Shown here: positions 46,001 through 63,466 of the stretch, piece after piece
How positions within the stretch are numbered: the stretch's first letter is position 1
How the letters are laid out: the number at the start of each line of letters is the position of its first letter
Virus record (IMG/VR): IMGVR_UViG_3300045988_177361
Strand: one strand, 5' to 3'
Length of the DNA: 64,000 nt
From: a virus
Position numbers and translations under genes: made by a program
The notes under the pieces: generated by a model
What the model was told of the DNA's origin: nothing
The model's input: the letters and a program-made list of their open reading frames with translations, nothing else
Databases searched by the model: none

Positions 46001-46172
46001 GGGGTTAAGTTCGATAATGGGCAGCTTTGTCGAGAGTAGAGGTTGACGGCCTAAACGGAAGTGGTTTAAAATAGATTCTTGTTTGAGATAAGGTCACTTT
46101 TCTAAAAGGCATTGAGGGACGGTTTCCGTTTTGGTCTCCGTCCCTCTTTTTTTTGTATTGTTTCCACGCTTG

Positions 46173-46200
46173 GAGTATACTGGAATCGTTCACATAAAAA
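46173..46200 (+). promoter_or_regulatory. Conserved promoter/leader motif, copy 1 (extended -10 TGnTATACT + GGAAT(T/C)GTTCACA(C/T)AAA)
   Basis: gagtatactggaatcgttcacataaaaa, 26 nt upstream of the ATG at 46226. Followed by an aaggag RBS. Confidence 0.65.
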
Positions 46201-46225
46201 AAGTTGAAAAACCAAGGAGAAAAAA

Positions 46226-46540
46226 ATGAATAAGCCTGCATACTTCAAGCAGTTCGGCGCAGAGGACTACAACATCTTCGTAGTCAAGGACAAGTCGTAT
46301 GTCATGAGTCGTTTCACAGACGACCCCGAGGGCGTCTACTACATGCTTTTCGAGCATGTCGAGAGTCAGACCGGCGTCAGCTATTACATGTTGGACAATA
46401 TTCCCGAGACTGTTTTGGACGGTGTTTCCGACGGTGGATATACCGATAGGGAGTTTGCTTCGAGGATTGTCGGTCAGGATAGGTTTGTCCACAATATCAA
46501 TGTTCGTAGGCTTCTGCATCATTCCCACTTGGACGCCTGA
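46226..46540 (+). CDS. Hypothetical small protein (104 aa); paralog of 51850-52158
   Basis: Shared sequence with the paralog: FGAEDYNIF...YVM.R..DE...YF.LFEH.E...GV......D.....VLDD..D......F...VGQ.D..FVHNIN.RR.L..S.L. Confidence 0.55.
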   Translation: MNKPAYFKQFGAEDYNIFVVKDKSYVMSRFTDDPEGVYYMLFEHVESQTGVSYYMLDNIPETVLDGVSDGGYTDREFASRIVGQDRFVHNINVRRLLHHSHLDA

Positions 46541-46638
46541 ACGATTCCGTAACAGTACTCTTCCTTCCCTTATAGGTTGGAGGGGTTTGTTTTTTCGGAG
46601 GTTGTTTATAGTTTTTTGGGTGTGTCGTTTTTCGTACG

Positions 46639-46667
46639 CTGTATACTGGGATTGTTCACACAAAGAG
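46639..46667 (+). promoter_or_regulatory. Conserved promoter/leader motif, copy 2
   Basis: ctgtatactgggattgttcacacaaag. The ATG of the next gene lies 26 nt downstream. Confidence 0.65.
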
Positions 46668-46693
46668 ATAAAAGAAAAACCAAGGAGCAAGAA

Positions 46694-47518
46694 ATGAGCA
46701 ACATCGACAGCATCATCGAACGCATCAACAACCTCATGGCAATAGCCGAAAACGAAGCATCCAGCGACAATGAGGCGCAAATGGCGTTCGAGCGGGCACA
46801 GAAACTCATTAACGAATATCGTATCGAAGACTGGAAACGCGACCGCACCCGCACGAACAAGCCAATCATCGAACGTGGCGTGAACGTAAGCAAAACCACC
46901 ATCTACCATCAGCAAGGCTACCTTGCGACCATCATCGCCCAAGCTAACGAATGCCGCGCCTACCTTCACGAAAGCCGGTGTAGCGGAAGGATTGAGGAAC
47001 GTGCCGTCATGTTCGTAGGCGAGGAAGATGATGTGAACGCCGCAGTCATTCTCTTCCAAAGCATCGACCTATACTGCTCAGTCCACGCCCGCACTAGCTA
47101 CGCGGACATGATTGACCAGCACGCCAAAGCGTACTATGAGGACAACAAGGAATACGTCGAAACGCATTACGGACGTGAATCCTATCCGACGCTGACGGAA
47201 TGCAAACAGTACATGCGTCGTGATTATCCACGCGCCAAGTTCTACTATGGTTATCGCGGTGGATTCAACGAACGTTTGAGCGAACGTTTCGAGGAGCTTC
47301 GCAAGCAGAGTCTCGCCATTCCTTCCGGTCGTGAGCTGGTGTCATGCAAGAGTCAGCGTCTGAACGAGTATTTTGACAAGCTTGAGCTGGTGTCGGGTCG
47401 TGCGGCCACTGCTCGTGGTAGCAAGGATGGTTTTGCCCGTGGTGTGAGTGACGCGAACAATGTGGGTTTGGGTTTGTCTGAAATGGGTGTTTCGTCCCAC
47501 GCTTTGCTGAATGCCTGA
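46694..47518 (+). CDS. DUF2786-like protein (274 aa), common in conjugative plasmid leading regions
   Basis: The N-terminus IIERINNLMAIAENEASSDNEAQMAFERAQKLINEY matches the DUF2786 helical signature (KLLALAEST..NEAEAA...A..L). Followed by a hairpin terminator at 47524-47566. Confidence 0.5.
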   Translation: MSNIDSIIERINNLMAIAENEASSDNEAQMAFERAQKLINEYRIEDWKRDRTRTNKPIIERGVNVSKTTIYHQQGYLATIIAQANECRAYLHESRCSGRIEERAVMFVGEEDDVNAAVILFQSIDLYCSVHARTSYADMIDQHAKAYYEDNKEYVETHYGRESYPTLTECKQYMRRDYPRAKFYYGYRGGFNERLSERFEELRKQSLAIPSGRELVSCKSQRLNEYFDKLELVSGRAATARGSKDGFARGVSDANNVGLGLSEMGVSSHALLNA

Positions 47519-47523
47519 CTTTT

Positions 47524-47566
47524 CAGCCCGCTTCCTTGTTTTGGGGAGTGGGCTGTTTTTGTTTTT
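47524..47566 (+). terminator. Intrinsic terminator
   Basis: cagcccgcttcc...ggagtgggctg followed by tttttgttttt. Confidence 0.55.
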
Positions 47567-47574
47567 CCACCAGA

Positions 47575-47605
47575 TATAGTATACTGGGATTGTTCACACA
47601 AAAAC
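47575..47605 (+). promoter_or_regulatory. Conserved promoter/leader motif, copy 3
   Basis: tatagtatactgggattgttcacacaaaaac. Confidence 0.65.
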
Positions 47606-47628
47606 TTGGTCTACAAAAGGAGCAACCC

Positions 47629-48006
47629 ATGAACACCTACTACGCCGCCATAGTCAACCACCCCAACCAGAAGCTCGACCCCGACAACAACATTCCACTA
47701 ATCCAGATTTTCCACAGCGCCACCGAACGCAATAACTGGGTGAAAGCTTACGCCGATAATCCCCACGTGAAGACCATCGACTCGAAACAGGCGATTCGTT
47801 GGCTCCGCTTCACCTACCGCCAGTATCGAAACCAGAAGATTCCCTCCCGCATGAGCAGAGACGGCGTGGTCACGAAGTTCCTCCGCATCTGCTCGTTCCA
47901 ACCCCTACTCCACACGAAGAGAATCAGCCTTACGCCGGAAGAGGTCATCAAGCATCTCTCCGACCCCGAAGACCATGTGCTGAGGAAAATCGGATACACT
48001 CGCTGA
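47629..48006 (+). CDS. Hypothetical protein (125 aa)
   Basis: ATG after an aaaggagcaaccc RBS. Confidence 0.5.
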   Translation: MNTYYAAIVNHPNQKLDPDNNIPLIQIFHSATERNNWVKAYADNPHVKTIDSKQAIRWLRFTYRQYRNQKIPSRMSRDGVVTKFLRICSFQPLLHTKRISLTPEEVIKHLSDPEDHVLRKIGYTR

Positions 48007-48017
48007 AAGGACAAAAA

Positions 48018-48431
48018 ATGAGTGAAACTATCGAAGACGCCAAGACCGAACCCCGTCCGACTTGGACGAAGCTAAAGGACGGTTGGAAAGTCCGAATCCC
48101 GAAAGAGTGGTGGGACAATTGGAGCGAGGCTGGTGAAACCGACGAGTTCCCGGTATTCAAAGCCAACGGCGAGGTGTCTCACGTGAACATCGTCAAGGTC
48201 AGCAAGCCGTTCGTGTTGGACGGTGTGGAATACGTCATAGGCACGCCAAGGAAGGAAACCTACCGTCGTGGGTCTGCCCTCTCCCGCACTTCCAATACCG
48301 CTCGTAAGCGCAGTGGCATTCGTTGTGAGGAGTGCGGCTCCACCAAGGGCGTGCATCTGACAAGGGACATTAACGGCATCGGTTGCCTGTTATGCTCTCT
48401 TTGCGATGATGGTTCCGCGAGCGTCTGCTGA
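48018..48431 (+). CDS. Hypothetical protein with a C-terminal Cys4 zinc ribbon (137 aa)
   Basis: CEECGSTKGV...CLLCSLCDDG. It has no promoter motif of its own and appears co-transcribed with the previous gene. A hairpin terminator follows at 48439-48480. Confidence 0.5.
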   Translation: MSETIEDAKTEPRPTWTKLKDGWKVRIPKEWWDNWSEAGETDEFPVFKANGEVSHVNIVKVSKPFVLDGVEYVIGTPRKETYRRGSALSRTSNTARKRSGIRCEECGSTKGVHLTRDINGIGCLLCSLCDDGSASVC

Positions 48432-48515
48432 TTGGGTTTGCGGGGATATGGTCTTGTTGCTGTAGTTCCCGCTTTTTGTTTTGTAGCGTGTTTTGTCCAA
48501 GCAAATTGTATACTG

Positions 48516-48544
48516 GAATTGTTCACACAAACAGGAAACCAAAA
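48516..48544 (+). promoter_or_regulatory. Conserved promoter/leader motif, copy 4
   Basis: ttgtatactggaattgttcacacaaacag. Confidence 0.65.
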
Positions 48545-48554
48545 GGAGAAAAAA

Positions 48555-48755
48555 ATGCATATCAAGGATGTTCTGCTCATGACGCTTGCCACCATCGCTT
48601 TCGGTGGGATGGCAACCGCAATCGTGTTCGGCATCTACTCGTTCGGCACTTGGCTGTTCACGTTTGGCCGCACGTTCGGCGTCGTGTCGGTCTGCGCCCT
48701 CATAGTCGCGTTGCTGGTCGTCGCGGTCAAGATTCGATTGAGCATGAATCGATAG
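48555..48755 (+). CDS. Small two-TM membrane protein (66 aa)
   Basis: MHIKDVLLMTLATIAFGGMATAIVFGIY...VCALIVALLVVAV. A terminator follows at 48767-48795. Confidence 0.5.
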   Translation: MHIKDVLLMTLATIAFGGMATAIVFGIYSFGTWLFTFGRTFGVVSVCALIVALLVVAVKIRLSMNR

Positions 48756-48766
48756 TTTTGGTTTGT

Positions 48767-48795
48767 GGCCCCGTCGTTTTGGCGGGGCTTTTTGT
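48767..48795 (+). terminator. Intrinsic terminator
   Basis: ggccccgtcgttttggcggggc followed by ttttt. Confidence 0.6.
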
Positions 48796-48830
48796 GTGGA
48801 CGTGTCTTGTTTTGTATATTTATCCAAACG

Positions 48831-48860
48831 TGCTATACTGGAAATGTCCACATAAAACAG
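48831..48860 (+). promoter_or_regulatory. Conserved promoter/leader motif, copy 5
   Basis: tgctatactggaaatgtccacataaaacag. Confidence 0.65.
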
Positions 48861-48883
48861 GCGGAGCCAACCAAGGAGAACAA

Positions 48884-49192
48884 ATGAACGACACCAAAAC
48901 CTACTACCAGCCAATCGCATTCGACAACGGCACCATCAGCATCGTCGCAAGCGACAACACCTACGACCACGCCTACGCAGACAGGCCCATGAACGAAGCC
49001 ATCGTGGAAACCTCCCACCACAAGCCCAATCCAATCAACTGGAAGCACGTCGTATCCAACTGCGACGAACGTTGGAACCTCATCAAAGGCAACGTGTGCT
49101 TGGCTGTCCTGAGCGGCAATTGGGACGTTTTCGAGAACCGTCACGAAAACAGAATCATGCTCGTCACCCGCAAGGGAACCCGAATCCTCTGA
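48884..49192 (+). CDS. Hypothetical protein (102 aa)
   Basis: aaggag RBS then the ATG at 48884. A hairpin follows at 49210-49241 (ggggagaagcg...cgcttctcccc). Confidence 0.5.
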   Translation: MNDTKTYYQPIAFDNGTISIVASDNTYDHAYADRPMNEAIVETSHHKPNPINWKHVVSNCDERWNLIKGNVCLAVLSGNWDVFENRHENRIMLVTRKGTRIL

Positions 49193-49278
49193 CCCACGCT
49201 AAAAGCCTCGGGGAGAAGCGTCATCCAGACCGCTTCTCCCCTCTCTCATATCCGACAAAAAAAGAAAGGAAGCCTTGC

Positions 49279-50010
49279 ATGAAAGAACGGAACATCTCAC
49301 TGGAAAACGACCTCATGATGTTAGGTCAGAAACCAATGGATGAACCCGACTCGTCCACCACCATCGAACTGCAAGAAATCGTGAAGAAGACGGAACGAAA
49401 ATTGCTGAACCCACCGACACCACCATTGAAATTCGAACCGAAAACAGCGGACGAGTCCACCGAAAACACCGACGAAACCGTCAGTAAGACGAGCGAGAAA
49501 CCCGCTCCGACGGAAAACAAGACCACTCCGAAACCCATTCCGAAAGCCTATAAGCCCGCCACGCGAAAAACCAACAAAACCGTACCTCCGACACCAGTCC
49601 CCGCCAATCCGTATGCGCCCGTCGAATACGACTGTAACGGCAAATGGCGTCAACTGTTGGCGGGAATCGCCGTCGTCGGAATTCTCGTGGCGGCAATCGC
49701 ATTGCTGGTGGGGGCTAAAACATGTTGGCGGTTCATTGCCGTAGGCGCATTGTCCGCATTCGCCATGCTTCCGCTCTACGGTTGGTTCGACGAACTCGAA
49801 CGGGACATGGCGGTCAAAGCAGTCGAAAAGGATTACAGGATTCGTATTCTGCAAACAAACGGAGGCAATGGACTCGCGGAAGTGCATTACATGTTCCAAC
49901 AGAATCCAACCGTCGAAGCCGGTATGGTCTCCTATGGTCATGGCTTGGCATGGTTGCGGAGCGCGGGCGGCAAGAAGATTGTCGGACGAAGGCAGCAGGT
50001 GGAAAAATGA
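49279..50010 (+). CDS. Hypothetical membrane-anchored protein (243 aa) with a disordered T/P/K-rich N-terminal half and C-terminal TM helices
   Basis: RBS aaaggaagcc. C-terminal helices LLAGIAVVGILVAAIALLVGA and FIAVGALSAFAMLPLYGWF. Confidence 0.5.
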   Translation: MKERNISLENDLMMLGQKPMDEPDSSTTIELQEIVKKTERKLLNPPTPPLKFEPKTADESTENTDETVSKTSEKPAPTENKTTPKPIPKAYKPATRKTNKTVPPTPVPANPYAPVEYDCNGKWRQLLAGIAVVGILVAAIALLVGAKTCWRFIAVGALSAFAMLPLYGWFDELERDMAVKAVEKDYRIRILQTNGGNGLAEVHYMFQQNPTVEAGMVSYGHGLAWLRSAGGKKIVGRRQQVEK

Positions 50011-50384
50011 TACCCAGCACGGTGAAGGCCGCACGTTTTCCCGCGTTCTTTTTCAACGGCGTTTGGCAAGGGCTTAAAGCCGCCCTCATGCCGCACGCTT
50101 GCATATCCGACCCGTTGCCTCCCATGCCGACCGTACGCGATTGGCTTCAAGCCCATGGAGGCACCGGCATGGATGCTGACGCATTCGACCGGTGCGAAAG
50201 CGAATGGTATGAGCTGCTGGAGCAACGCAAACGGCAGATGAACGTGTTTTTGGCTGGCTTGTTCGTGGGTACGCTGGTGTATGCGATTGCGGCGCTTGCA
50301 TTGCTGGCGCTTGTTGGCTGGCTGGTGTATTCGCTGGTTCCGTTTGACGGTTTCGGACGTTTTGTCGATTGGGTTCGCGGTTGA
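50007..50384 (+). CDS. Hypothetical membrane protein (125 aa)
   Basis: Start overlaps the preceding stop. C-terminal TM NVFLAGLFVGTLVYAIAALALLALVGWLVYSLV. Confidence 0.45.
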   Translation: MIPSTVKAARFPAFFFNGVWQGLKAALMPHACISDPLPPMPTVRDWLQAHGGTGMDADAFDRCESEWYELLEQRKRQMNVFLAGLFVGTLVYAIAALALLALVGWLVYSLVPFDGFGRFVDWVRG

Positions 50385-50400
50385 GCGTTTCTCTATCCTG

Positions 50401-50429
50401 TGCTATGCTGGAATTGTTCACACAAACAG
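50401..50429 (+). promoter_or_regulatory. Conserved promoter/leader motif, copy 6
   Basis: tgctatgctggaattgttcacacaaacag. Confidence 0.65.
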
Positions 50430-50448
50430 GGAATCAAAAGGAGCAGAA

Positions 50449-51372
50449 ATGAGCGACAACATCAACTGGAACGAAACCGCAATCTACGAATTCATGCGAT
50501 TCGAGCGCGAACCCGAACGCCGAGTATTCCCCGACCGCGACATCACCAAACTCGCCAAAGCCGGACTCATTCAGGAAAACGAGACGGGCGACTGGACTCT
50601 CACCCAAACAGGCGAAGACGAACTCGCCAACATTAGACAGCATTTCAACTCCGGCAAACTCTCCGAACTACCCCTGAAAGTCCGTAACTACTACTTCGAC
50701 TGGCGCGTATACGACGAAAAGAAACTACCCGTCAAGGAACTATCCAAAGTTGCCCTACATGACAGGAGCGCCGAGATTCGCAAAAAAGCGACCACAATGC
50801 TCAACAAGTTCAGCAAGCTCGACAAGGAAACGTCGAACAGTTTGGCCCACGACGAGGATTATCAGATTCGACTCATGGCGGCAAAGAACGCAAACCCTCA
50901 CCTCTTCTTCGAGGAGTCGGACGAGCGCGTGGTCAAGACTCTTATCTATAACCATAATTTCGATGAGGAATGTGTCGAACATTGGCTGGACAATCCCAAC
51001 AGTCAGATTCGCGTTCAGGCGGCTCTTCTGACCGAAGACGGCAAGGTGGATGAAGTGTTGGCCCGCCTCGACTCACAGGATGTGGCGCATGTACTGGCCT
51101 GCAAGCCGCAGTGGGCCACGCGTGAACGAGTCATGAACGCTTGGGAGAACGCGGACGAGGTAGGACGTTACAGGCTGGTCAAGGTCATGCGCGACATGCC
51201 GGACTCGTTCATCAATCAGGCGTTCAAAAGCGACGCGTACATGGCCTTGCATGACCGTTTGGAGGAATACCGAGAAGCTGTCCGTCAAGTGTTGGAGTTG
51301 GGTACGATGTTCTCCGAGGACAGTGAGATTCGCCGGAAGATTTGGGAGCGTGCCGAGCACGAGATTGGCTGA
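50449..51372 (+). CDS. HEAT/LRV-type alpha-helical repeat protein (307 aa); paralog of 52319-53284
   Basis: Repeated ~30-aa helical units (LAHDEDYQIRLMAAKNANPHL; ...DNPNSQIRVQAALLTEDG). Similar in length and repeat pattern to the protein at 52319-53284. Confidence 0.5.
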   Translation: MSDNINWNETAIYEFMRFEREPERRVFPDRDITKLAKAGLIQENETGDWTLTQTGEDELANIRQHFNSGKLSELPLKVRNYYFDWRVYDEKKLPVKELSKVALHDRSAEIRKKATTMLNKFSKLDKETSNSLAHDEDYQIRLMAAKNANPHLFFEESDERVVKTLIYNHNFDEECVEHWLDNPNSQIRVQAALLTEDGKVDEVLARLDSQDVAHVLACKPQWATRERVMNAWENADEVGRYRLVKVMRDMPDSFINQAFKSDAYMALHDRLEEYREAVRQVLELGTMFSEDSEIRRKIWERAEHEIG

Positions 51373-51382
51373 AAGGACAGCA

Positions 51383-51679
51383 ATGAGAAAAGCGACATTC
51401 ATCAGAAAATACTACGGGCACGGATACGACGCACATATGGTCTATCTTGTCTACAGCTATCGCGGGCACGAATACACGGTGTACGAAAACCTAGCCCAAG
51501 GCAACGAGCCTCTCGCGTGGCAACACCGCAATGAACAAAGCCAAATAGACCAGTTGATAGAGCAGGAAGAGAAAGAAAAGAACGCGAAGCTGAAGCCAAG
51601 CCGTTATGAGGACACCGCGCAATATGCCTTCGACCAGTTTTATGACTTTCTCGATGGCAAACCGTCGGACTACGACTAA
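51383..51679 (+). CDS. Hypothetical protein (98 aa)
   Basis: The ATG at 51383 has an aaaggacagc RBS and looks co-transcribed with the previous gene. Confidence 0.45.
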   Translation: MRKATFIRKYYGHGYDAHMVYLVYSYRGHEYTVYENLAQGNEPLAWQHRNEQSQIDQLIEQEEKEKNAKLKPSRYEDTAQYAFDQFYDFLDGKPSDYD

Positions 51680-51803
51680 CCGGTAACACCCACTGCGGCG
51701 GAGGGGACCGCACCTCCCTCCGTATAGTGGTGAAAAATATTGAGTCGTGTGGATGCTTTTTGTGTTCGCGCGGATTTTTGTGTTTTTGCGCTTTCTCTTA
51801 AAT

Positions 51804-51830
51804 ATGCTATACTGGAATTGTTCACACAAA
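51804..51830 (+). promoter_or_regulatory. Conserved promoter/leader motif, copy 7
   Basis: atgctatactggaattgttcacacaaa. Confidence 0.65.
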
Positions 51831-51849
51831 TATGAGAGAAAGAGCCAAA

Positions 51850-52158
51850 ATGAACGAGTATTTCGCACGATTCGGAGCAGAGGACTACAACATCTTCCAC
51901 AACGGCAATGCCTCCTATGTCATGTTGCGAGTTGCGGACGAGAACATGACCTACTTCGCCTTGTTCGAGCACATCGAGGGTCATGCTGGCGTCGGCTGTA
52001 GGATGTTTGACTCTCCGACCGAGGTGGTTTTGGACGACGCCGTTGACGAGACGTGCTCCGACGAGCAGCTTGCCGACTTCGTTGGACAGCCTGACACCGC
52101 TTTCGTCCACAACATCAATATCCGCAGGATTCTGTATCGCTCCGGACTTCTGAACTAA
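51850..52158 (+). CDS. Hypothetical small protein (102 aa); paralog of 46226-46540
   Basis: See 46226. A strong terminator follows at 52165-52209. Confidence 0.55.
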   Translation: MNEYFARFGAEDYNIFHNGNASYVMLRVADENMTYFALFEHIEGHAGVGCRMFDSPTEVVLDDAVDETCSDEQLADFVGQPDTAFVHNINIRRILYRSGLLN

Positions 52159-52164
52159 AACATG

Positions 52165-52209
52165 GGAATACGCCCGCAGGAAAATCATGTGGGCGTATTC
52201 CTTTTTTTC
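52165..52209 (+). terminator. Intrinsic terminator
   Basis: ggaatacgcccgc-aggaaaatcatgt-gggcgtattcc followed by ttttttt. Confidence 0.75.
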
Positions 52210-52271
52210 GTATGGGCGGGGATTGCGTCTTCGTTTTGGCTTGGTTGCGTGTTGTGTTTTATTTCAACTTA

Positions 52272-52297
52272 GGCTATACTGGAATTGTTCACACAAG
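52272..52297 (+). promoter_or_regulatory. Conserved promoter/leader motif, copy 8
   Basis: ggctatactggaattgttcacacaag. Confidence 0.65.
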
Positions 52298-52318
52298 ATA
52301 TGCCGAGAAGGAGAAACC

Positions 52319-53284
52319 ATGGACAACGACGCAATCAACAGTCTTACCAAAAAGTGGACTGCCAACCTCGTTTACTGCTTCGAAGACTTCGACAACGAAA
52401 CCCATTCACAACGACTGAGCGCATACATCGACCAGAAGCCCTTAGATAAATTCAAGGAAGCCAACCTAATCGAACTAAACAAGGAACGCGACCGCTGGAA
52501 GCTCACCAACAAGGGAATCGACCTGCTGGAAAGCATTAAGAACATCTACCAGAGTGGAAGAATATTCCTACTCCCCCTACCATTCCGTCACTACTACGTC
52601 AACTGCAAGTTGAAGTACAACATGAAAATCGAGGACGGAAAGATATACGACGGACTGCGTGAAACTGTGTTGAAAGACCGGAGTCGTGACGTTCGCCGCA
52701 AGGTGACCGAATATTTGGAATACAAGGGAAAACTCAACTACAAGACCGCGACCAGCCTCGCCAAGGACAAAGACCCCGAACTACGCAAGCTCGCCGCAAA
52801 GCATACCGTTGCAAGCCTGTACTGGGAGGAAACGGATTACGACGTTATCCGCTACATGGTGGAAAACAAGCTGGCCGATAGGCTCTGCTTCGAGCATTGG
52901 GTGAAAAGCGATGATGAAACCATTCGCGTCCTATCGGCACCGTTGGCGGAGGAAACGGACATAGACCCGTTGTTGGACTCCCTCTCCGACGAATCCGCCA
53001 CCCAAGTCTTGTTTAATAATCCGGAATGGGTCAAAGGTAAGCGTGCCGTGCGCTTGTGGCGTCGCATGGGCGGGGAAAACCGCCGTTGGATTATGTCCTT
53101 TATGTGGGATGTTCCCGATTCTCTGATTGAGGAGTCGTTGGCGGAACCTCGTAATTGGCAAATCTCCTCCCGACTGGAGGAATACAAGAAAGCGTTGCAG
53201 ACCGTGGCCCGTATGGAGCGCCTGTTCGCCAAGGGCAGCGAGATTAAACGCAAGATGCGCGCTCGTGCCGGTTTGTCCGATTGA
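52319..53284 (+). CDS. HEAT/LRV-type helical repeat protein (321 aa); paralog of 50449-51372
   Basis: LAKDKDPELRKLAAKHTVASL... repeats. A terminator follows at 53301-53337. Confidence 0.5.
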   Translation: MDNDAINSLTKKWTANLVYCFEDFDNETHSQRLSAYIDQKPLDKFKEANLIELNKERDRWKLTNKGIDLLESIKNIYQSGRIFLLPLPFRHYYVNCKLKYNMKIEDGKIYDGLRETVLKDRSRDVRRKVTEYLEYKGKLNYKTATSLAKDKDPELRKLAAKHTVASLYWEETDYDVIRYMVENKLADRLCFEHWVKSDDETIRVLSAPLAEETDIDPLLDSLSDESATQVLFNNPEWVKGKRAVRLWRRMGGENRRWIMSFMWDVPDSLIEESLAEPRNWQISSRLEEYKKALQTVARMERLFAKGSEIKRKMRARAGLSD

Positions 53285-54083: not shown

Positions 54084-54093
54084 GAAAACGAAA

Positions 54094-56222: not shown

Positions 56223-56230
56223 GAGAGAAC

Positions 56231-56651: not shown

Positions 56652-56921
56652 ATGAGCATTCTCAACGAAGAACTGGAAGAACGGTATCCCATCGAGGAAG
56701 GCGACTGCATCACGCTCACACGGGAACAGTTGGCGTTACAGTTGCGTCGCGCATACAAGGCGGGTGCGACCCGCGACTATAAGCGCACTCCGCACGGGCA
56801 TACGGAACTGGTGGAGATTATCGGAAACCTCCAAGACTCCCACTTATTGCCTGATGGCACGGACTTCGAGGATGTCGTGAGAACGGTTCTGGACGGGCGT
56901 GTCAAGGCCATCACCAAATAG
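56652..56921 (+). CDS. Hypothetical small protein (89 aa)
   Basis: RBS aaggaaaaac then the ATG at 56652. Confidence 0.4.
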   Translation: MSILNEELEERYPIEEGDCITLTREQLALQLRRAYKAGATRDYKRTPHGHTELVEIIGNLQDSHLLPDGTDFEDVVRTVLDGRVKAITK

Positions 56922-56922
56922 G

Positions 56923-56950
56923 CGTTATACTAGAAACGTCCACACATTCA
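56923..56950 (+). promoter_or_regulatory. Conserved promoter/leader motif, copy 12 (variant)
   Basis: cgttatactagaaacgtccacacattca. Confidence 0.55.
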
Positions 56951-56971
56951 CTTATCCAAGGAGACCACACT

Positions 56972-57556
56972 ATGAGCTGGGACAGATACCAAAGTCGAGA
57001 CCCCAGAAGAATCGACCCAATGAAAACACCACTCTACGATTACGTGGTCTTGGATACCGAAACCACCGGCTTCAAACCCGAAAACGGGGCTAAACTCATC
57101 GAAATCGGAGCCGTGAAAATCCATGACGGAAAACTCGTGGACCGATACGAGCAACTGATTGACCCACACCAGCCAATCCCCGAATACATCACCTCGCTCA
57201 CCGGAATCAACAACAGCATGGTCATCGGACAACCCGACGTAAGCCAAGCCATCATCCGATTCGACAAGTGGCTTGGCCCGCGAACCATCATCATGGCGCA
57301 TAACGCGTCATTCGATTTAAGTTTCTTGGACGCGGCCATGAAAACCGTGAACGGTGGAATGTTCTTCTTTCCACACCGGTTCGTGGACACGTTGGAAATG
57401 AGCCGGAAAATCCATCCCGAAAAGCCAAGCCATAAGGTTGCCGTGCTTATCCGCGACTATGGTATCGGTGACGTGGAAGAGCATCGCGCCTTGTCCGACG
57501 CGACTCAGGAAAACATGCTGTATGAAGCCATGCGCAGAGAGGAATTTGGCCGCTAA
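56972..57556 (+). CDS. DnaQ-like 3'-5' exonuclease (DEDDh family, DNA polymerase III epsilon-like)
   Basis: Exo I VVLDTETTGF, Exo II IMAHNASFDLSFL, Exo III H-x4-D (EHRALSDA). 194 aa. Confidence 0.8.
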   Translation: MSWDRYQSRDPRRIDPMKTPLYDYVVLDTETTGFKPENGAKLIEIGAVKIHDGKLVDRYEQLIDPHQPIPEYITSLTGINNSMVIGQPDVSQAIIRFDKWLGPRTIIMAHNASFDLSFLDAAMKTVNGGMFFFPHRFVDTLEMSRKIHPEKPSHKVAVLIRDYGIGDVEEHRALSDATQENMLYEAMRREEFGR

Positions 57557-57814
57557 ATGGGATACGAGGACATGTTCAGTCCCGAATGCAGGGACTATCT
57601 GAAATCACGCAAGCCGTCGCAACGGGAGCGGGAGATAGCGAAGCTTGAGAAACAGGCCGACAAGAAGCATGACATGTATGGCAACAAAACCCTCTACGAA
57701 GTCTCAGAAGAGGTTGCGGCCATCTACGAAAGCCAGAAGGCGTTGCGCTTGAGGTTGGAAAGCATCGAGGAAAAACTGGACGAACTCTTAAGGACTCAGA
57801 AAGGACTGGGGTGA
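57557..57814 (+). CDS. Hypothetical coiled-coil protein (85 aa)
   Basis: Translationally coupled to the exonuclease gene (taaatg). Confidence 0.4.
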   Translation: MGYEDMFSPECRDYLKSRKPSQREREIAKLEKQADKKHDMYGNKTLYEVSEEVAAIYESQKALRLRLESIEEKLDELLRTQKGLG

Positions 57815-58380
57815 GAAACCTTCTTACATGCCCATGCTGTAACAGCATTCCCGAATTTAAGTATCGGGCTAAATCTGAACTCCACTGCACTTGGGACGAC
57901 GAGCAATATTTTCTGCCGAAAGGTTGGGGATACTCCCACTTTTGTCCAGTGGATAATGGTTTGCAAACATCTGGCGGAGTCGGCTTCCAAACCTTGCACG
58001 ACGCACAGCGCGACTGGAACTGTAAGGTTGGAAGTTTTCTCCGTAACCCGCTGAACAGTTTCCACTCGTCCATCGAGACCGGTGCGGAACTGCTGACCGA
58101 ATTAGATGATTGTTTCGTTGGGCAGCGAATTCAGCTTGGCGACCGGATATTATTGAGTCGGCGTTCTCTAACCGTTCGAGGTATCGTGCAGTTCATCCAA
58201 CGGGACAGTGTTGGCGAAATCAGCGTCATCCTGCGGGATACGGACACCATCAAGTATGTGATTTATTCGCCGGTCTGGGAGCGTCGGAAGTACATGTTCT
58301 CGTATTATATCGAAAGGCGAATGCATTGGATAAAAAAGCCGAAAGGCTCCTCTGCGACGCATACCATCGTGGACGCTTAG
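57811..58380 (+). CDS. Hypothetical protein with an N-terminal CxxC...C zinc-ribbon-like motif (189 aa)
   Basis: LTCPCCNSIPEF...HCTWDD. Confidence 0.4.
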   Translation: MRNLLTCPCCNSIPEFKYRAKSELHCTWDDEQYFLPKGWGYSHFCPVDNGLQTSGGVGFQTLHDAQRDWNCKVGSFLRNPLNSFHSSIETGAELLTELDDCFVGQRIQLGDRILLSRRSLTVRGIVQFIQRDSVGEISVILRDTDTIKYVIYSPVWERRKYMFSYYIERRMHWIKKPKGSSATHTIVDA

Positions 58381-58555
58381 CGGAGGTTAACGAACATAAT
58401 CAGGACGCGGCTATGTCCCTTATCGATAACGGGTATGCCGACTATTGGCGTACTCTGTTGGGGCACGAGGCCATCAGGCTGACCGACCACGGGCTTGGTG
58501 CCGCACGGAAACTGGAGTCGGATTACTGATTTTCCAGCGTTTTTAAAGACTGGAT

Positions 58556-58572
58556 TGTTATACTGGAACAGT
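58556..58572 (+). promoter_or_regulatory. Promoter/leader motif, copy 13 (-10 part only), fused to a leader hairpin
   Basis: tgttatactggaacagt, then a perfect inverted repeat. Confidence 0.55.
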
Positions 58573-58605
58573 GGGCACAATACTGTGCCCACTGTTTTCT
58601 TATTC
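58569..58605 (+). terminator. Leader hairpin plus T-tract between promoter copy 13 and its gene (candidate attenuator/operator)
   Basis: cagtgggcaca-atac-tgtgcccactg (11-bp perfect stem) followed by ttttcttattc. The aggagg RBS and the ATG at 58621 follow. Confidence 0.55.
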
Positions 58606-58620
58606 TCAGGAGGAACCGGG

Positions 58621-58881
58621 ATGACCCAGCATAGCGACAAAAGCCACAAGAACAAGAAGGTCGTGGTCATTGAGAAGGTGCGGGACAAGTATGGTTCCGT
58701 CATCGCTTTGAAGGTTGTATTGTATCGTCGGCATGATAGTGAGAATGGGAAGGTTTGGGACATGAAGCGTTCTCATACGTTCAGTGCGGCTTTCAGTCGT
58801 CGTGCTTGTAGGGAACAGGCGAAGACGTTGGCTCGTCAGTGGGCTGATAAGTATGGTGCGAAGGTTGTGAAGAGGGGGTAG
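58621..58881 (+). CDS. Hypothetical small basic protein (86 aa)
   Basis: aggagg RBS 8 nt upstream. Confidence 0.5.
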   Translation: MTQHSDKSHKNKKVVVIEKVRDKYGSVIALKVVLYRRHDSENGKVWDMKRSHTFSAAFSRRACREQAKTLARQWADKYGAKVVKRG

Positions 58882-58902
58882 TTGTCCTCTTTGACGGTTT
58901 AT

Positions 58903-58928
58903 GTTATGCTGGGGGTGTTCACATAAAG
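58903..58928 (+). promoter_or_regulatory. Conserved promoter/leader motif, copy 14
   Basis: gttatgctgggggtgttcacataaag. Confidence 0.6.
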
Positions 58929-58951
58929 CCCAGTCGAAAAAGGAGAATACC

Positions 58952-59251
58952 ATGCAGAACATCAACCTCTACAAACTGATGTCAAAACTGTACGCCCGTC
59001 CCGAAGTCGAGGACGCTCACATCGTGAGCTGCATGTACGAGGACGATACCCTTAAAACGGTCATGCGCAACGGCTTGGTCGTCACCATCGGCGTGCAGGA
59101 CGAATATCCAGCGGTCGCACTGTACACCATATACGCCAACGACGAGGACTACCGAAACAATGAGCCTCTGACCGAAGGCTTGCACTACGACTTCGAAGAC
59201 GACCACGACTACAAGGACGGCGTGGAAGCCATCATCAAGGAGGCGTGCTGA
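58952..59251 (+). CDS. Hypothetical protein (99 aa)
   Basis: RBS aaaggagaatacc then the ATG at 58952. Confidence 0.5.
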   Translation: MQNINLYKLMSKLYARPEVEDAHIVSCMYEDDTLKTVMRNGLVVTIGVQDEYPAVALYTIYANDEDYRNNEPLTEGLHYDFEDDHDYKDGVEAIIKEAC

Positions 59252-59254
59252 CCC

Positions 59255-59562
59255 ATGGACACCATCATCTTCGTCAAAGACCGCAACTGGCCCGGCACGA
59301 ACAGTTCTCAGGCGACGTGCTCCCCGACGAGGGGCTGCGCGAACGGTATTTCACATTGTACGAACGCGAGGACGACGACCAAGCCGACTGGGACGCGTTC
59401 ATCGACGACCTCTGGCAGACCGCCGATGACATGGGCTTGGAGGGGCTGGCTGACTGGTTTGTCGAACTGAACGACCCCACCACCATCAATGCCCGCTACT
59501 GGGTGCTCGACGGCATCGAATACTTGGACGCCGCGCACACCATGCCAAGGGACGAAATGTGA
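59255..59562 (+). pseudogene. Probable frameshifted gene, or an uncorrected sequencing error
   Basis: An aggagg-supported ATG at 59255 opens a frame (MDTIIFVKDRNW...) that soon turns into S/T/R-rich nonsense. The -1 frame continues as a convincing acidic protein (...FSGDVLPDEGLRERYFTLYEREDDDQADWDAFIDDLWQTADDMGLEGLADWFVELN...) to the stop at 59562. Confidence 0.4.
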
Positions 59563-59636
59563 CCTGTCTTATCACGGAAACCCCAAAGCCAAGCAGAAAC
59601 AACCTCAACCTTCCCCTATGAAAAAGGAGTGGAGAA

Positions 59637-60047
59637 ATGACCGGTTTCATCGCCGTCGATATGCTGTCCGAAATCAGCAAGGCCCTCGAATATGAAAACG
59701 ATTGGACTCAACTGAAGGACGGCGTGCTGGAATGCCGACTGCGAGACCAGTATGACGGTGAGCACACCGGACTCGCCCGCGTCACCGTAGACAAGGCGGG
59801 CAAGGTGTCCGTTATGGCATGGTCGGACAATCCGTACGAATACGCAACCATGCCCGACCCCGACTGGACACATGAATACGATTCAGCCGACCCGGAAGCC
59901 ATCGCAGACGACATTTGGAACCGTTGCCCATACTGCGGGCGGGAATCCGACAAGTGCATGTGCGAACGTTGCGCGGGCTGCGGCGTCCTTCTGGACTGGA
60001 ACAACAGGGCGGAAGGCGACTACGGCTACTGCGAATACTGCCATTAG
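59637..60047 (+). CDS. Hypothetical protein with a C-terminal double zinc ribbon (136 aa)
   Basis: CPYCGRESDKCMCERCAGCGV...YCEYCH. Confidence 0.5.
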   Translation: MTGFIAVDMLSEISKALEYENDWTQLKDGVLECRLRDQYDGEHTGLARVTVDKAGKVSVMAWSDNPYEYATMPDPDWTHEYDSADPEAIADDIWNRCPYCGRESDKCMCERCAGCGVLLDWNNRAEGDYGYCEYCH

Positions 60048-60065
60048 AAAAAAGGAGAAACAAAA

Positions 60066-60686
60066 ATGCTGAAAATCGAGAAGACACTGAAGGAACTGCG
60101 TGACCTTCAAAACACCTTGCGTGAACTCGGAATCGAAATGTCCATCAAGGATGCGGATGCCGAAACGAAAAGCGATTATGAGGATGCAGCGATGACCATT
60201 GACGTATATGAGCCGTGTCGTTGTTTCGCGTGGATTGGTATGGACGGCGTGATTCACATGAGGTGGAATTCGTATCCCGATGCCTTCGCGTGGTTTCGGA
60301 TGAACCTGCTTTTGGACCTCGCTCGCGGCTACATGCTGAAAGCGGACAACATCACTAAATCGTGGACGCACCTTCGCAGGAATCTCGACGGACAAGCCGA
60401 CGAAATGCCCCTCCCCGACAAACTGGCCGGAAGGAAAGCGGAATACGAGGATACGGCAAACCGACTGCGCGACCTCATCAAAGCCGACCCGATTGCAATG
60501 GATTTATCCCCTTACGAATGCGAACGCCTTGAAAGGTTCCTCCGCGACCCGCAGAAGGAACGTCTTCTGGAGTACGACCCGGACGACCCGTTTTACAGGA
60601 ACATGTTCAACAGAGGCTTGATTGACCGCGACGGACTGACCGAACTGGGGCGAAAGGCCATGGAACATTACATTGCATCGGCCTGA
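60066..60686 (+). CDS. Hypothetical protein (206 aa)
   Basis: RBS aaaaggagaaacaaaa then the ATG. Confidence 0.5.
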   Translation: MLKIEKTLKELRDLQNTLRELGIEMSIKDADAETKSDYEDAAMTIDVYEPCRCFAWIGMDGVIHMRWNSYPDAFAWFRMNLLLDLARGYMLKADNITKSWTHLRRNLDGQADEMPLPDKLAGRKAEYEDTANRLRDLIKADPIAMDLSPYECERLERFLRDPQKERLLEYDPDDPFYRNMFNRGLIDRDGLTELGRKAMEHYIASA

Positions 60687-60827
60687 CCGTCACGTCCATG
60701 GTCGGACAATCCGTATGAATACGCAGCCTCCCGTTCGCTGAGAACCTGTTCTCGTTCGCGCGGAGCGCGGGACGCATTCAATGGACGAAAAATACATCAA
60801 CCAAACAACAAGGAAAGGAAGCATACC

Positions 60828-61316
60828 ATGCTGTTCAAGCTTGAAATAGGAGACTACTCCGAAGACGGTTACGGAGTCCATGAGCCGGTAATCTACGAGA
60901 CGAACTATGATGTCGCCGCCATCGCGGAAGGATACAAGAAGAGTTGCAAGAAGTACGGCATCCAGTTCAACCGTGGCGACAACGATTTCACGGGACTGGG
61001 GCTGAAATGCTGGGATAAACGCGCCCTCTGGTCGAACCCTGACATGGGCGCGAACTGGCTCGACGAAAAGATGTACGACCTGCTGACGCATACCGGCGTC
61101 GTGCCCGAGGAAGACATGATGCCATCCTTGTTGTCCGAAGGCAAATACCTCGCCAATTACGATAGCGAGTCCGACGAGTATGCCAACGCCATCATGAGGT
61201 TCATCGCCCTCTCCATGCCCGATGACTTCACTTACAGAATTCAGGAGACTGAGAACATTCCGTGCCTGAATGACACGTTGGGAGTCAACCTCGGCTACGG
61301 GCTGCTGGTGCCGTAA
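60828..61316 (+). CDS. Hypothetical protein (162 aa)
   Basis: RBS aaggaaaggaagcatacc then the ATG. Confidence 0.5.
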   Translation: MLFKLEIGDYSEDGYGVHEPVIYETNYDVAAIAEGYKKSCKKYGIQFNRGDNDFTGLGLKCWDKRALWSNPDMGANWLDEKMYDLLTHTGVVPEEDMMPSLLSEGKYLANYDSESDEYANAIMRFIALSMPDDFTYRIQETENIPCLNDTLGVNLGYGLLVP

Positions 61317-61426
61317 CTGTCAAGGTTGGGCAGGACAGGCGGAAAGGAGTAAGGAATGACTGAAAGACCCCTCATCGTCATTGACTGCTGGCTTATGAGG
61401 GTGTTGGTTTGTCTTCTTAACCAACT

Positions 61427-61456
61427 GTGTTATACTGGGGGTGTTCACATAAAAAA
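61427..61456 (+). promoter_or_regulatory. Conserved promoter/leader motif, copy 15
   Basis: tgtgttatactgggggtgttcacataaaaa. Confidence 0.6.
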
Positions 61457-61498
61457 CGGTCGGAAAAGAGACCACCATCCCGATTCGGAGCAACAACA

Positions 61499-62125
61499 AT
61501 GCATAGCCTATACAAGACCGCAGGTAAATGCACTCTCAACCGAAACAAAGTGCGTTACCCCAACCAAAAGGAAGCCCAACTCGCCTTGGCCGTCATCAAA
61601 GGACGAGGCAATCCGAAACACACAGAGAAACGCGCATACCATTGCCCCGTCTGCCACGGATGGCATCTGACCAGCGCCGAAACCGTTAATGATACAGTCC
61701 TGTCCGGGAGCGTGCTCCAACACACCAATCCAGACGCGTTCGACACAGGAATGAAAGCGTTCCTCTCTGGTTCCAAACGCGGCAAATATTCCGCAAGCAA
61801 AGCCAGCCTGACCCGACGTGTCCGACATTTGCTCCACCTGTTCGCGGCTAACGATATTCCGAATGACTCTTGGGACAATCCATGGTTGTGGGCAACTCTT
61901 AGATTCCAAATCATGTGGAGGGGTGGAGACCAGAAGGCCGAACAGCTTCTATCCACTTCGAAGAAAACGGTCAAAATGGCGGGCGACATGCTCACCGAAG
62001 ACAAGGAGCCGTTCCTTCGCGTGGCTGAAACCCGGAAGGAAGCACAAAAATTACAGAATACACCACTACCGGCATGGTTGGCCGTCGCACTGATGGCCGA
62101 CAAGGGAAAGGAGCAGAAAGTTTGA
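61499..62125 (+). CDS. Hypothetical protein with a CPxCHGWH zinc-binding motif (208 aa)
   Basis: ...AYHCPVCHGWHLT... Confidence 0.45.
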   Translation: MHSLYKTAGKCTLNRNKVRYPNQKEAQLALAVIKGRGNPKHTEKRAYHCPVCHGWHLTSAETVNDTVLSGSVLQHTNPDAFDTGMKAFLSGSKRGKYSASKASLTRRVRHLLHLFAANDIPNDSWDNPWLWATLRFQIMWRGGDQKAEQLLSTSKKTVKMAGDMLTEDKEPFLRVAETRKEAQKLQNTPLPAWLAVALMADKGKEQKV

Positions 62126-62297
62126 ACGAAAACGAACTGAAAGAAAGGGCCGTCCACTCATTGCTCCAATCGAAGCTTGGTAAAGTCGCCCCGGCGGAAG
62201 CGTTTGTCATCGGATGGCGGAAAGGCTGGGACGAGGCTATCGACATGGCTTTGGAAATCGTTCGCAATGAACTCGATAAAGATGGCGAGAACGAATC

Positions 62298-62570
62298 GTG
62301 ATTTGTTCCAAATACACGTGCATGTTGTGCGGAAGAGTCACCGACTTGGACACCGGCTACAAGTACATCATCTCCGTCGTCCAAACAGGCGGTCACGGTC
62401 GATGCTCATACGCTCGAACATTGGTCATCTGCCAGCATTGCATGCGCACGCATAAAACCGTCATGACCTTGCAACGCAAATCCTTGAATGAGGAAAACGT
62501 TCTTGAATTCCACAGGCCACCGAAAACCCGAAAAACGTCCACCAAGAAAACCGGCGAGAAGAAAGGCTGA
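62298..62570 (+). CDS. Small zinc-ribbon protein (90 aa)
   Basis: CMLCGRVTDLD...CQHCMRTHK. Confidence 0.45.
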   Translation: MICSKYTCMLCGRVTDLDTGYKYIISVVQTGGHGRCSYARTLVICQHCMRTHKTVMTLQRKSLNEENVLEFHRPPKTRKTSTKKTGEKKG

Positions 62571-62578
62571 ACCGTTTT

Positions 62579-63466
62579 ATGGACACCAGTGAAAAGCAGA
62601 TTATCGGAGAGAACGCCAAATACGTTTCCGACACCATCCCGCAGGAGACCAAGGATGGGCTTCGCGCCCATTTGAAGCCCGGATACGCCATGCCGGACGG
62701 CACCCATTATGCGACCGGCAAGGATTACACGGAGTTGATGCGCAATCTGCGCAACATCCAATACTGTGGCTGTCCGCTCTGCCACGACACGCAGTCTGGG
62801 CTGAAAACCATTCTCGCAACCAGCGGCATGACCGTCCGTGAGCTTGCCGAGGAAATCGCATGCGACGAATACGATTCGTATTCCGTTGACGAAATCCGCG
62901 ACCTTGACCCGGAACAGTTGAAGCCGGTGGACGAGATTGTCGAGGATATCAACCGTTGGAGCCACGACCAGCGTGCGCTCGAACACGCTTCCTTCGGCAC
63001 CGTCAGGCTTCTGTCCGTCTACTTGAACGTCAGTCTCGACCAGATGTACGACGAATTGGATTATCAGACGCTCATCTACACACCATGGGAGGAGGACTCC
63101 CACATTTACGGCTATGTGACGGTCATCCGTTACAAGGATGGAAAGTATGAGGTGGATGTTCCGGAATGCCGCTACCAGTGCGACGAAACGTATTGGAACG
63201 CGCGTCGCAAGATGGAAGAATCCAACACTCCCATCACGTTGGATGTTCTGCGTAGCGAACCGTGGAGCAAGGAGCATCGCACTCCCGTGGCATTGCCGGA
63301 ACAGTATCGTGGCAAACAGTATCATCTGGGAGGTCATTCCAGCCTGTCGGCTTTGCTGGACAAGCTGGCCTCACATGATGTTCCGGTGGACGAAAGGGTT
63401 CTTATCGCCCTCGAACTGGAGGAACAGTTCCCGTTGCGGTTGACCCCACTGTCTGACAAGGACTGA
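62579..63466 (+). CDS. Hypothetical protein (295 aa), Cys/His-rich in places
   Basis: ...IQYCGCPLCHDTQSG... Coding-like throughout. Confidence 0.45.
   Translation: MDTSEKQIIGENAKYVSDTIPQETKDGLRAHLKPGYAMPDGTHYATGKDYTELMRNLRNIQYCGCPLCHDTQSGLKTILATSGMTVRELAEEIACDEYDSYSVDEIRDLDPEQLKPVDEIVEDINRWSHDQRALEHASFGTVRLLSVYLNVSLDQMYDELDYQTLIYTPWEEDSHIYGYVTVIRYKDGKYEVDVPECRYQCDETYWNARRKMEESNTPITLDVLRSEPWSKEHRTPVALPEQYRGKQYHLGGHSSLSALLDKLASHDVPVDERVLIALELEEQFPLRLTPLSDKD

Follow-up and report, generated by a model that had tools for sequence, protein, structure and literature searches.

Why does one short promoter-like sequence recur before so many small genes in a single stretch of DNA, and what would it do there? 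The question was raised by a 64,000-nucleotide stretch catalogued as viral (IMG/VR record IMGVR_UViG_3300045988_177361), the whole of which we call the window. Its right-hand part is a one-strand array of small genes, which an earlier note, made from the letters alone, had read as a candidate leading-region anti-defense island. We found that the repeated sequence is a lineage-specific form of a motif known from the Bifidobacterium breve megaplasmid pMP7017, and that its copies are junctions at which gene cassettes recombine. The best explanation, which we consider probable, combines a promoter motif, an inferred plasmid regulon, and cassette crossover at the motif copies.

A Repeated Module in Front of the Array Genes

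The 26-mer given in the earlier note was scanned over the window with up to three mismatches allowed. It matched eight times on the + strand (47577–55824) and once on the − strand (25474–25499). No match occurred in 100 dinucleotide-preserving shuffles, and chance alone would give none. With a 19-nt core (TATACTGGAATTGTTCACA) and up to five mismatches, 14 + strand copies were found, at 46176, 46642, 47580, 48509, 48834, 50404, 51808, 52275, 53366, 55802, 56926, 58559, 58905, and 61431. A position weight matrix (PWM), trained on the ten best copies and then run over the window, added a degenerate fifteenth array copy at 55057. The array carries 15 + strand copies of TGnTATACTGGAATTGTTCACACAAA (46176–61431), ten near-perfect and five degenerate, which reproduces the earlier count for a repeat of about 28 bp. 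The claim that the repeat always precedes a ribosome-binding site and a start codon likewise held for all 15 copies: 30–62 nt separate the end of the −10 box from the start codon, and a Shine–Dalgarno sequence (mostly AAGGAG) stands 3–33 nt past the conserved block. The copies are numbered in Table 1.

The repeat is found beyond this region as well. The PWM also detected copies at 29903(+) and 25496(−), before backbone genes, and a weak one at 25570(+), so that the whole window holds 17–18 copies. The last two form a divergent pair, comparable to 56070−/56120+ on pMP7017. In relatives, the array goes on for at least 9 kb past the window end, with at least six more motif copies and genes for an RNA ligase, a DUF3310 protein, and LRV-repeat proteins. 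Contigs of 217–223 kb contain the main array, a second array in the same orientation about 65 kb away, and isolated copies. One 222-kb contig showed at least 18 copies, in three regions, in the 24 kb sampled.

The anatomy of the module was derived from 371 unique motif contexts in related contigs. The information content was 1.1–2.0 bits across the 23-nt block from TATACT to CACAAA and about 0.2 bits in the flanks, the values for the core being inflated by the exact-match core search through which the contexts were collected. A weak TTG at −23 to −21 relative to TATACT corresponds to a −35 element at 17-bp spacing, and TG at −3/−2 relative to the hexamer forms an extended −10 box (TGn). The hexamer is followed by GG(A/G)ATT and then by a GT(T/C)CACA(C/T)AAA box at a fixed 6-nt spacing from the −10; a short A-rich leader and a strong Shine–Dalgarno sequence come next. 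The extended −10 TGnTATACT of the earlier note was recovered, together with a conserved box downstream of it. Most array copies, and 283 of the contexts, belong to subtype GTTCACAC. A pMP7017-like subtype with GTCCACA accounts for 63 contexts. To it belong array copies 48834, 55057, and 56926 and, in the backbone, copies 25496 and 29903, of which 29903 reads GCCCACA.

Box-only sequences in inverted orientation, GTCCACA(C/T)AAAA, were seen 45–85 nt 5' of a motif promoter in both plasmids (48790–48801 versus 48847–48858 in the window; ~147845–147856 versus 147926 on pMP7017). One possible role for such an inverted box is that of an auxiliary operator; it may also be what is left of a divergent promoter. 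The site at 48.8 kb folds into a strong hairpin as single-stranded DNA (z = −4).

The Plasmid and Its Host

Gene content and synteny identify the window as part of a ~220-kb, very prevalent megaplasmid of the B. adolescentis group, a sister lineage of the B. breve/B. longum plasmid pMP7017. It encodes a RepA_C protein (6308–7177), a ParA-family protein (7771–8433), a ParA/MinD-like ATPase (18474–19688), DnaB (28550–29890), a Gram-positive pilin (31518–33212), a sortase (33350–34255), and a 1792-aa RCC1/SdrD adhesin. The segment at 6–29 kb is syntenic with 40–60 kb of pMP7017, at 30–61% amino acid identity; a 587-aa backbone protein is 54% identical to its counterpart. Identical sequences of RepA, DnaB, ParA, and a 295-aa array protein are named B. 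adolescentis at NCBI. An IS21-family transposase (4028–5581, − strand) is identical to copies annotated as B. adolescentis, which links the plasmid to that host; it also occurs on a 2.3-Mb contig, and the neighboring open reading frame (ORF) at 3270–4031 may be its IstB partner.

Public assemblies contain the 295-aa array protein in 927 indexed blocks, on 215–227-kb contigs, and the ParA of the plasmid occurs on at least 1000 contigs. Targeted full-text literature searching found no paper on this plasmid. Contigs of the family (loci L120–L222, 100–217 kb) are catalogued in IMG/VR as viral genomes. This listing looks like a misclassification, the window having Rep, Par, and pilus genes and, among the proteins scanned, no virion genes (capsid, portal, terminase, tail). 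Near-identity DNA searches of the array gave no match among phages and a single 520-bp cassette among plasmids; window positions 22000–46000 gave no match among plasmids.

Relation to the pMP7017 Motif

Dineen et al. 2024 (PMC10832533) describe a 34-bp motif on pMP7017 that overlaps the −10 box, AWAYATGY-TATACT-GAATATGTCCACATAAAAWA. It was found 5' of six highly transcribed genes in log-phase RNA-seq, and 13 further sites throughout the plasmid brought the number to 19 copies. By their prediction, 56 genes, or some 24% of the coding capacity, are under its control. The authors read it as a transcription-factor site of a presumed plasmid-specific regulon and reported that bifidobacterial chromosomes lack it (PMC10832533).

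Hexamer and register are the same in the window motif, and the two motifs agree at 12 of the 17 positions that follow the −10 box. The GTCCACATAAA box stands at its fixed spacing from TATACT here too; copies 48834, 25496, and 56926 carry it as GTCCACA, and copy 48834 (TATACTGGAAATGTCCACATAAAA) is almost the pMP7017 form. The two sets of sites further share the 6-nt spacing to a GTyCACAyAAA box, the position before the Shine–Dalgarno sequence and start, and the occurrence in many copies on both strands of related megaplasmids. In both lineages the motif heads homologous genes, namely those for the DUF2786 protein, the 3'–5' exonuclease, and the divergent backbone pair. The pMP7017 ortholog of the exonuclease behind P11 (56% amino acid identity) is one of these. 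Our rescan of pMP7017 gave 24 copies, including ones before ssb and the cas genes and one that abuts repB, and a B. longum plasmid fragment gave five. At the B. longum locus L001, the pMP7017-type motif was present and the window-type motif was absent.

The differences concern the consensus, which is GGAATTGTTCACAC here versus GAATATGTCCACAT on pMP7017, the host (B. adolescentis group versus B. breve), and the plasmid itself (~220 kb and 52–53% GC versus 190 kb and 57% GC). Only 7 of the 35 array proteins have any pMP7017 homolog. The positions conserved between lineages are G.A..TGT.CACA.AAA, and the lineage differences (GGAATT/GAATAT, T/C, C/T) are common to most copies within a lineage. This pattern points to co-evolution with a putative trans-acting factor, to gene conversion among the copies, or to both. 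The exact 19-mer occurred once in 185,579 representative genomes, in an unrelated metagenome-assembled genome and outside any array context, and in more than 220 stretches of human-gut contigs (100–227 kb). By these searches, the motif is plasmid-specific and not chromosomal. The kind of feature is already published for pMP7017; a divergent and prevalent lineage with its own consensus, together with the cassette-junction evidence, is new.

Motif Copies as Cassette Junctions

Close relatives of the window differ in the presence or absence of cassettes and in TnpB insertions. The window was compared by BLAST with four full-context relatives for deletion junctions. In a deletion between P1 and P2, ORF 46226–46540 is lost and the junction is one motif copy that aligns to two window copies. 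Single-motif junctions were likewise found between P7 and P8 (51850–52158 lost) and between P5 and P9 (48.8–53.4 kb lost). Three relatives (L223, L225, and L226) lack the block 58952–61316, which lies between the GGGGGTGTTCACATAAA copies P13 and P14. Over all loci compared, 10 of 35 left homology ends were no more than 10 nt to either side of a motif start (1.7% expected, P = 3e-10), and 13 of 49 right ends fell +15 to +80 nt from it (5.4% expected, P = 1.5e-6). These junctions at motif copies in relatives show that the repeated module is a recombination junction. The portion of Dineen et al. drawn on here makes no mention of such a role for the motif copies.

Two diverged pairs of paralogous cassettes, 46226–46540/51850–52158 and 50449–51372/52319–53284, were seen inside the array, each member with its own motif. 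Such pairs imply cassette duplication as well as loss.

Exchange across species was seen for cassette 59548–60069 (+ strand), the only part with a high-identity match to any deposited plasmid. It is 93% identical at the DNA level to B. longum megaplasmids (L001, 15001–15523). The product of its gene (59637–60047) is acidic, 136 aa long, and has a Cys cluster at its C-terminus. On the B. longum side, the homology runs from about 10 nt past a pMP7017-type motif to the stop codon. Set against the 30–61% identity of homologous pMP7017 backbone proteins, this value indicates a recent inter-species transfer of the cassette.

A close parallel in arrangement comes from the PeSL (promoter-early stem-loop) cassettes of T4-like phages (Arbiol et al. 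2010, PMC2839356; Comeau et al. 2014, PMC4122927), in which terminator-plus-promoter repeats flank small ORFans in hyperplastic regions. There, too, indels between close relatives join in the repeats, and unrelated genes are swapped by recombination. The window has flanking terminator–promoter units with indel junctions in them, but it is part of a plasmid and, among its scanned proteins, has none of the virion genes of a T4-like genome. Only the promoter and the box are conserved here, and the sequence of the hairpin varies between copies.

A Putative Plasmid Regulon and Its Candidate Regulators

In the explanation that we prefer, each copy would act as a housekeeping-sigma promoter, with a weak TTG −35, a 17-bp spacer, TGn, and TATACT. 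The appended box, at about +1 to +11 if transcription starts 7 nt past the hexamer, would tie many units into one plasmid-specific regulon. This span lies outside the stretch that RNA polymerase reads sequence-specifically. From its conservation there, across lineages with 30–61% identical backbones, and from the lineage differences that most copies have in common, we infer that a plasmid-encoded factor, most probably a regulator that binds DNA, targets the box. A motif copy and the terminator preceding it would delimit a self-contained cassette of promoter, gene or genes, and terminator. The identical copies of about 26 bp would in addition serve as crossover points at which cassettes are deleted, inserted, or exchanged, and this crossover would keep the region a hyperplastic store of ORFans.

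Several points weigh against this explanation. The transcription start site is assumed from the −10 box. The regulator stands at candidate level, and the box has no dyad symmetry beyond TGT..ACA. The pMP7017 motif was found at highly expressed genes, and a repressor would be at most partial in steady state. Recent duplication or gene conversion may contribute more than selection does to the near-identity of the GTTCACAC copies. RecA-type homologous recombination and a dedicated recombinase are not separable by the coincidence of junctions with the motif. The enrichment of junctions may also be inflated by kinship among the metagenomic relatives, since events were collapsed by coordinate only.

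Two groups of genes are candidates for the regulator. The first is a pair of a helix-turn-helix (HTH) protein and a Peptidase_M78 (ImmA/IrrE) protein, conserved in both lineages. It is located at 24932–26028 on pMP7017 and at the B. adolescentis-lineage loci L084, L111, and L178, outside the window; at these loci a degenerate motif, CATACTGGGCGTATTCACA, lies about 250 nt 5' of the pair. The arrangement presumably resembles the ImmR/ImmA switch of ICEBs1. The second candidate comprises the winged-helix+HEAT paralogs, whose genes stand directly behind motif copies in both lineages. No homolog of the pMP7017 WhiB protein, or of the HTH regulator at 106877–107530 on that plasmid, was found in the window or the loci compared.

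A parallel is offered by the regulons for establishment in the pLS20 family of Gram-positive conjugative plasmids (EGeRS2/p576 repressor type; Val-Calvo et al. 2021, PMC8708921), where a conserved sequence recurs before a number of operons whose small genes vary. By analogy, one repeated regulatory sequence before many operons suggests one plasmid-encoded regulator. The copy number is far higher here, however, and the motif also heads backbone and defense genes. The p576/pLS20 clade II type has an autoregulated repressor of its own at the repeats, a role for which the genes named above are candidates here. The IncP kil-kor regulon is presumably comparable. The earlier note had proposed a single regulator or sigma-dependent switch that turns on the whole set, for example upon entry into a recipient. 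A common trans-acting regulator is a reasonable reading of the data, and one that the pMP7017 authors also reached; an entry-only switch is at odds with the high log-phase transcription of the motif genes on pMP7017.

A bolder extension, which we put forward tentatively, is that the module is a dual-purpose 'mobile promoter', at once the operator of a plasmid-wide switch and the crossover site of an integrase-free cassette exchange. Such a system might shuffle ORFans within and between the megaplasmids of B. adolescentis, B. longum, and possibly B. pseudocatenulatum/catenulatum. Seen in this way, the module might be the plasmid counterpart of phage PeSLs, at work in one of the most abundant commensals of the human gut. 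B. adolescentis is a dominant species of the adult gut, and the plasmid is very common. A 26-bp module that drives a large share of the plasmid genes would provide a handle on the master regulator of the plasmid, a portable promoter for Bifidobacterium genetics, and a marker with which to find related plasmids in metagenomic data. The accumulation of ORFans in these plasmids, and their trade across species, would be explained if the copies also mediate cassette exchange.

Alternative Readings

On the reading as an island, the array would be the DNA that enters a recipient first; with the plasmid repressor missing there, all motif promoters would fire in a burst (zygotic induction), and the ORFans would act against host defenses. 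We regard this as unlikely. The array is indeed long and unidirectional, with all of its genes on one strand, and many of its small ORFans are acidic (isoelectric point below 5.5 in 16 of 35 proteins). It contains DUF2786, DnaQ-like exonuclease, and RNA ligase genes, and its counterpart regions on pMP7017 include DNA methyltransferase genes, a restriction-alleviation gene of the Lar family, and an ssb gene with the motif. For p576/pLS20-family plasmids, an establishment regulon of several operons under one repressor has been documented (PMC8708921), and the HTH+ImmA/IrrE pair is conserved in both plasmid lineages. The leading-region label has no anchor in the window, where no oriT or relaxase was found, and none is known for the family. 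The literature describes pMP7017 as conjugative; PLSDB typing lists it as non-mobilizable, and the portions of its literature drawn on here do not mention an oriT. The motif, moreover, also heads backbone, SPFH, and cas genes and abuts repB, and it forms two or more arrays separated by about 65 kb. On pMP7017, its promoters are highly expressed in log-phase cells in which the plasmid is established.

The gene content does not support the island either. No known anti-defense family, whether anti-restriction or anti-CRISPR, and no SSB or methyltransferase family was found among the array proteins with Pfam and PHROGs, or with PADLOC for two of them and PDB sequences for three, and two AlphaFold2 (AF2) models searched by fold had no anti-defense match. 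The proposed anti-defense content was not borne out by these searches, and the label of a leading-region anti-defense island is not established. Leading-region islands with Frpo promoters (Samuel et al. 2024, PMC11541004) are also unidirectional clusters of small, mostly uncharacterized genes. The array differs from them in having ordinary double-strand-type promoters, and it shows no oriT as a reference point, no known anti-defense gene, and no hairpin of a single-stranded DNA promoter.

A second alternative, which we consider more doubtful still, places the action of the box at the RNA level, as a common 5' leader for mRNA stability or translation or as a site for an RNA-binding protein. The box begins at the expected +1; an asymmetric, A/C-rich sequence for which no structure is predicted, it always stands before a short leader and a strong Shine–Dalgarno sequence; on pMP7017, conservation continues through the leader to the Shine–Dalgarno sequence. 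An RNA leader, however, has no need for the inverted box-only copies that lie 5' of promoters in both plasmids. These copies hint that the box acts on DNA. No Rfam family matches it.

We see very little chance that the copies are single-strand promoters of the Frpo/ssi type or that the motif is the recombination site of an integron-like, site-specific cassette system, even though the array is unidirectional and its cassette junctions fall at the motif. DNA folding of ten motif regions for Frpo/ssi-type hairpins yielded only the upstream terminator hairpins; the −10 box was not consistently paired and the z-scores were mostly not significant. The Frpo-type promoter, as defined by Samuel et al. 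2024 (PMC11541004), was rejected on this result. No integrase or recombinase gene adjoins the array, no intI flanks it, and a promoter belongs to every cassette here, whereas those of integrons are promoterless.

The least probable reading, to which we give almost no weight, takes the array for early genes of a jumbo phage or phage-plasmid and the motif for a phage early promoter: more than 100 IMG/VR stretches with the motif, PHROG matches of unknown function, phage-like RNA ligase and DUF3310 genes, and an organization like that of T4 hyperplastic regions speak for it, but the scan of window proteins brought up no capsid, portal, terminase, or tail family, and RepA_C, two ParA-type proteins, DnaB, the sortase–pilin–adhesin cluster, and the synteny with pMP7017 argue for a plasmid.

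Array Genes and Terminators

The array contains 34 + strand ORFs with a Shine–Dalgarno sequence (46226–63466), followed by an RNA ligase gene that starts at 63529 and exits the window end. The earlier estimate of about 35 genes agrees with this number; the right end then given for the region 46150–62600 was arbitrary, and the array runs on. ORF 63618–63896 was rejected as a gene in favor of the RNA ligase. The mapped features are collected in Table 1.

Table 1. Motif copies with the genes they head, and other mapped features of the window.
Feature	Position	Strand	Description
Unidirectional array	46226–64000	+	34 small ORFs and the 5' part of the RNA-ligase gene
P1	46173–46198	+	GAGTATACTGGAATCGTTCACATAAA; heads 104-aa ORF 46226–46540
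P2	46639–46664	+	heads DUF2786+DUF7168 gene 46694–47518; pMP7017 homolog (30% aa identity) likewise with motif
P3	47577–47602	+	heads 47629–48006 and 48018–48431 (zinc-ribbon protein)
P4	48506–48531	+	heads 66-aa hydrophobic ORF 48555–48755
P5	48831–48856	+	pMP7017-like subtype GTCCACATAAAA
P5 genes		+	48884–49192; ORF ending 50010 (start uncertain); 50007–50384
P6	50401–50426	+	heads winged-helix+HEAT/LRV solenoid gene 50449–51372, then 51383–51679
P7	51805–51830	+	perfect consensus; heads 51850–52158, paralog of 46226–46540
P8	52272–52297	+	heads 52319–53284, paralog of 50449–51372 (33% identity)
P9	53363–53388	+	heads 53416–53673, 53721–54083, 54094–54468
Degenerate copy	55054–55079	+	TGTTAGAGTGAGATAGTCCACACCAA; heads 55093–55338 and GNAT gene 55313–55768
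P10	55799–55824	+	heads 55851–56222 (TTG start) and 56231–56455
P11	56923–56948	+	degenerate, GTCCACA subtype; heads RNase_T/DnaQ-like exonuclease 56972–57556, 57557–57814, 57811–58380
P12	58556–58598	+	degenerate, −10 box retained; heads 58621–58881
P13	58902–58927	+	GGGGGTGTTCACATAAA variant; left edge of block 58952–61316
P14	61428–61453	+	same GGGGGTGTTCACATAAA variant as P13; right edge of block 58952–61316
P14 genes		+	61499–62125, 62122–62301, 62298–62570, 62579–63466
Copy outside the array	25474–25499	−	GTCCACA subtype; faces backbone genes on its left
Degenerate copy outside the array	29900–29925	+	before SPFH/Band-7 gene 29941–31338
Intrinsic-terminator-like hairpin + T-tract	47524–47555	+	between cassettes (example)
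Further hairpin	46114–46146		
Further hairpin	46552–46590		
Further hairpin	48440–48472		
Further hairpin	48767–48789		
Further hairpin	50332–50359		
Further hairpin	51746–51772		
Further hairpin	52164–52202		
Further hairpin	53298–53330		
Further hairpin	58512–58537		
Further hairpin	61367–61404		

The terminator scan covered the 14 core copies, with 55057 left out. A hairpin with a T-tract was found no more than 130 nt upstream of 11 of the 14, nine of them with ΔG ≤ −13 kcal/mol. This agrees with the description of genes followed by a GC hairpin and a T-tract. Generic scans showed no overall enrichment of sigma-70 promoters (9 versus 13.4 expected) or of terminators (29 versus 23.9 expected); the signal is confined to the specific motif and the strong + strand hairpins. 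At P12, a hairpin with a 15-bp stem and then a T-rich stretch stand directly 3' of the −10, in place of the downstream box. This hairpin is a possible leader terminator or attenuator before 58621–58881.

The contents named in the earlier note were all present: the DUF2786-like, GNAT, and DnaQ-like proteins of Table 1, paired CxxC motifs in five proteins (its Cys4 proteins), HEAT/LRV-like solenoids (50449–51372 and 52319–53284), and small hydrophobic proteins. Beyond DUF2786/DUF7168, GNAT, RNase_T, and a weak HEAT match, Pfam and PHROGs gave only five unnamed PHROGs over the array ORFs. PDB sequence searches with three array proteins gave no match, and Rfam and tRNA/tmRNA scans of the window gave none. 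The AF2 model of 50449–51372 (pLDDT 86.6) consists of a winged helix and a HEAT/LRV solenoid, for which Foldseek returned generic HEAT/ARM/LRV solenoids and no significant fold match. That of 59637–60047 (pLDDT 76.8) shows an alpha/beta domain with a Cys cluster and had no significant Foldseek match. A Lar-like N-terminus was suspected in 57811–58380, but BLASTP revealed no similarity to the pMP7017 Lar protein.

Neighboring Genes

Further genes were noted to the left of the array. The pilin, the sortase, and the adhesin belong to a surface-protein cluster at 31518–40577, which comprises a SpaA-type pilin, the sortase, the 1792-aa RCC1/SdrD-repeat adhesin, and a DUF6273 protein. A GlfT2-like glycosyltransferase (159–2219) and a choline-binding/YG-repeat protein (2368–3192) are encoded near the left end of the window. 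An AAA ATPase (22776–23768, − strand) matches PADLOC IetA models (E = 5.5e-62) and phrog_3757. Just 5' of the array, a reverse transcriptase matches models of defense-associated reverse transcriptases (DRT/UG). It adjoins an AAA_16 ATPase with a 52%-identical homolog on pMP7017. The two genes, at 41487–42788 (+) and 44780–46000 (−), form a possible defense module.

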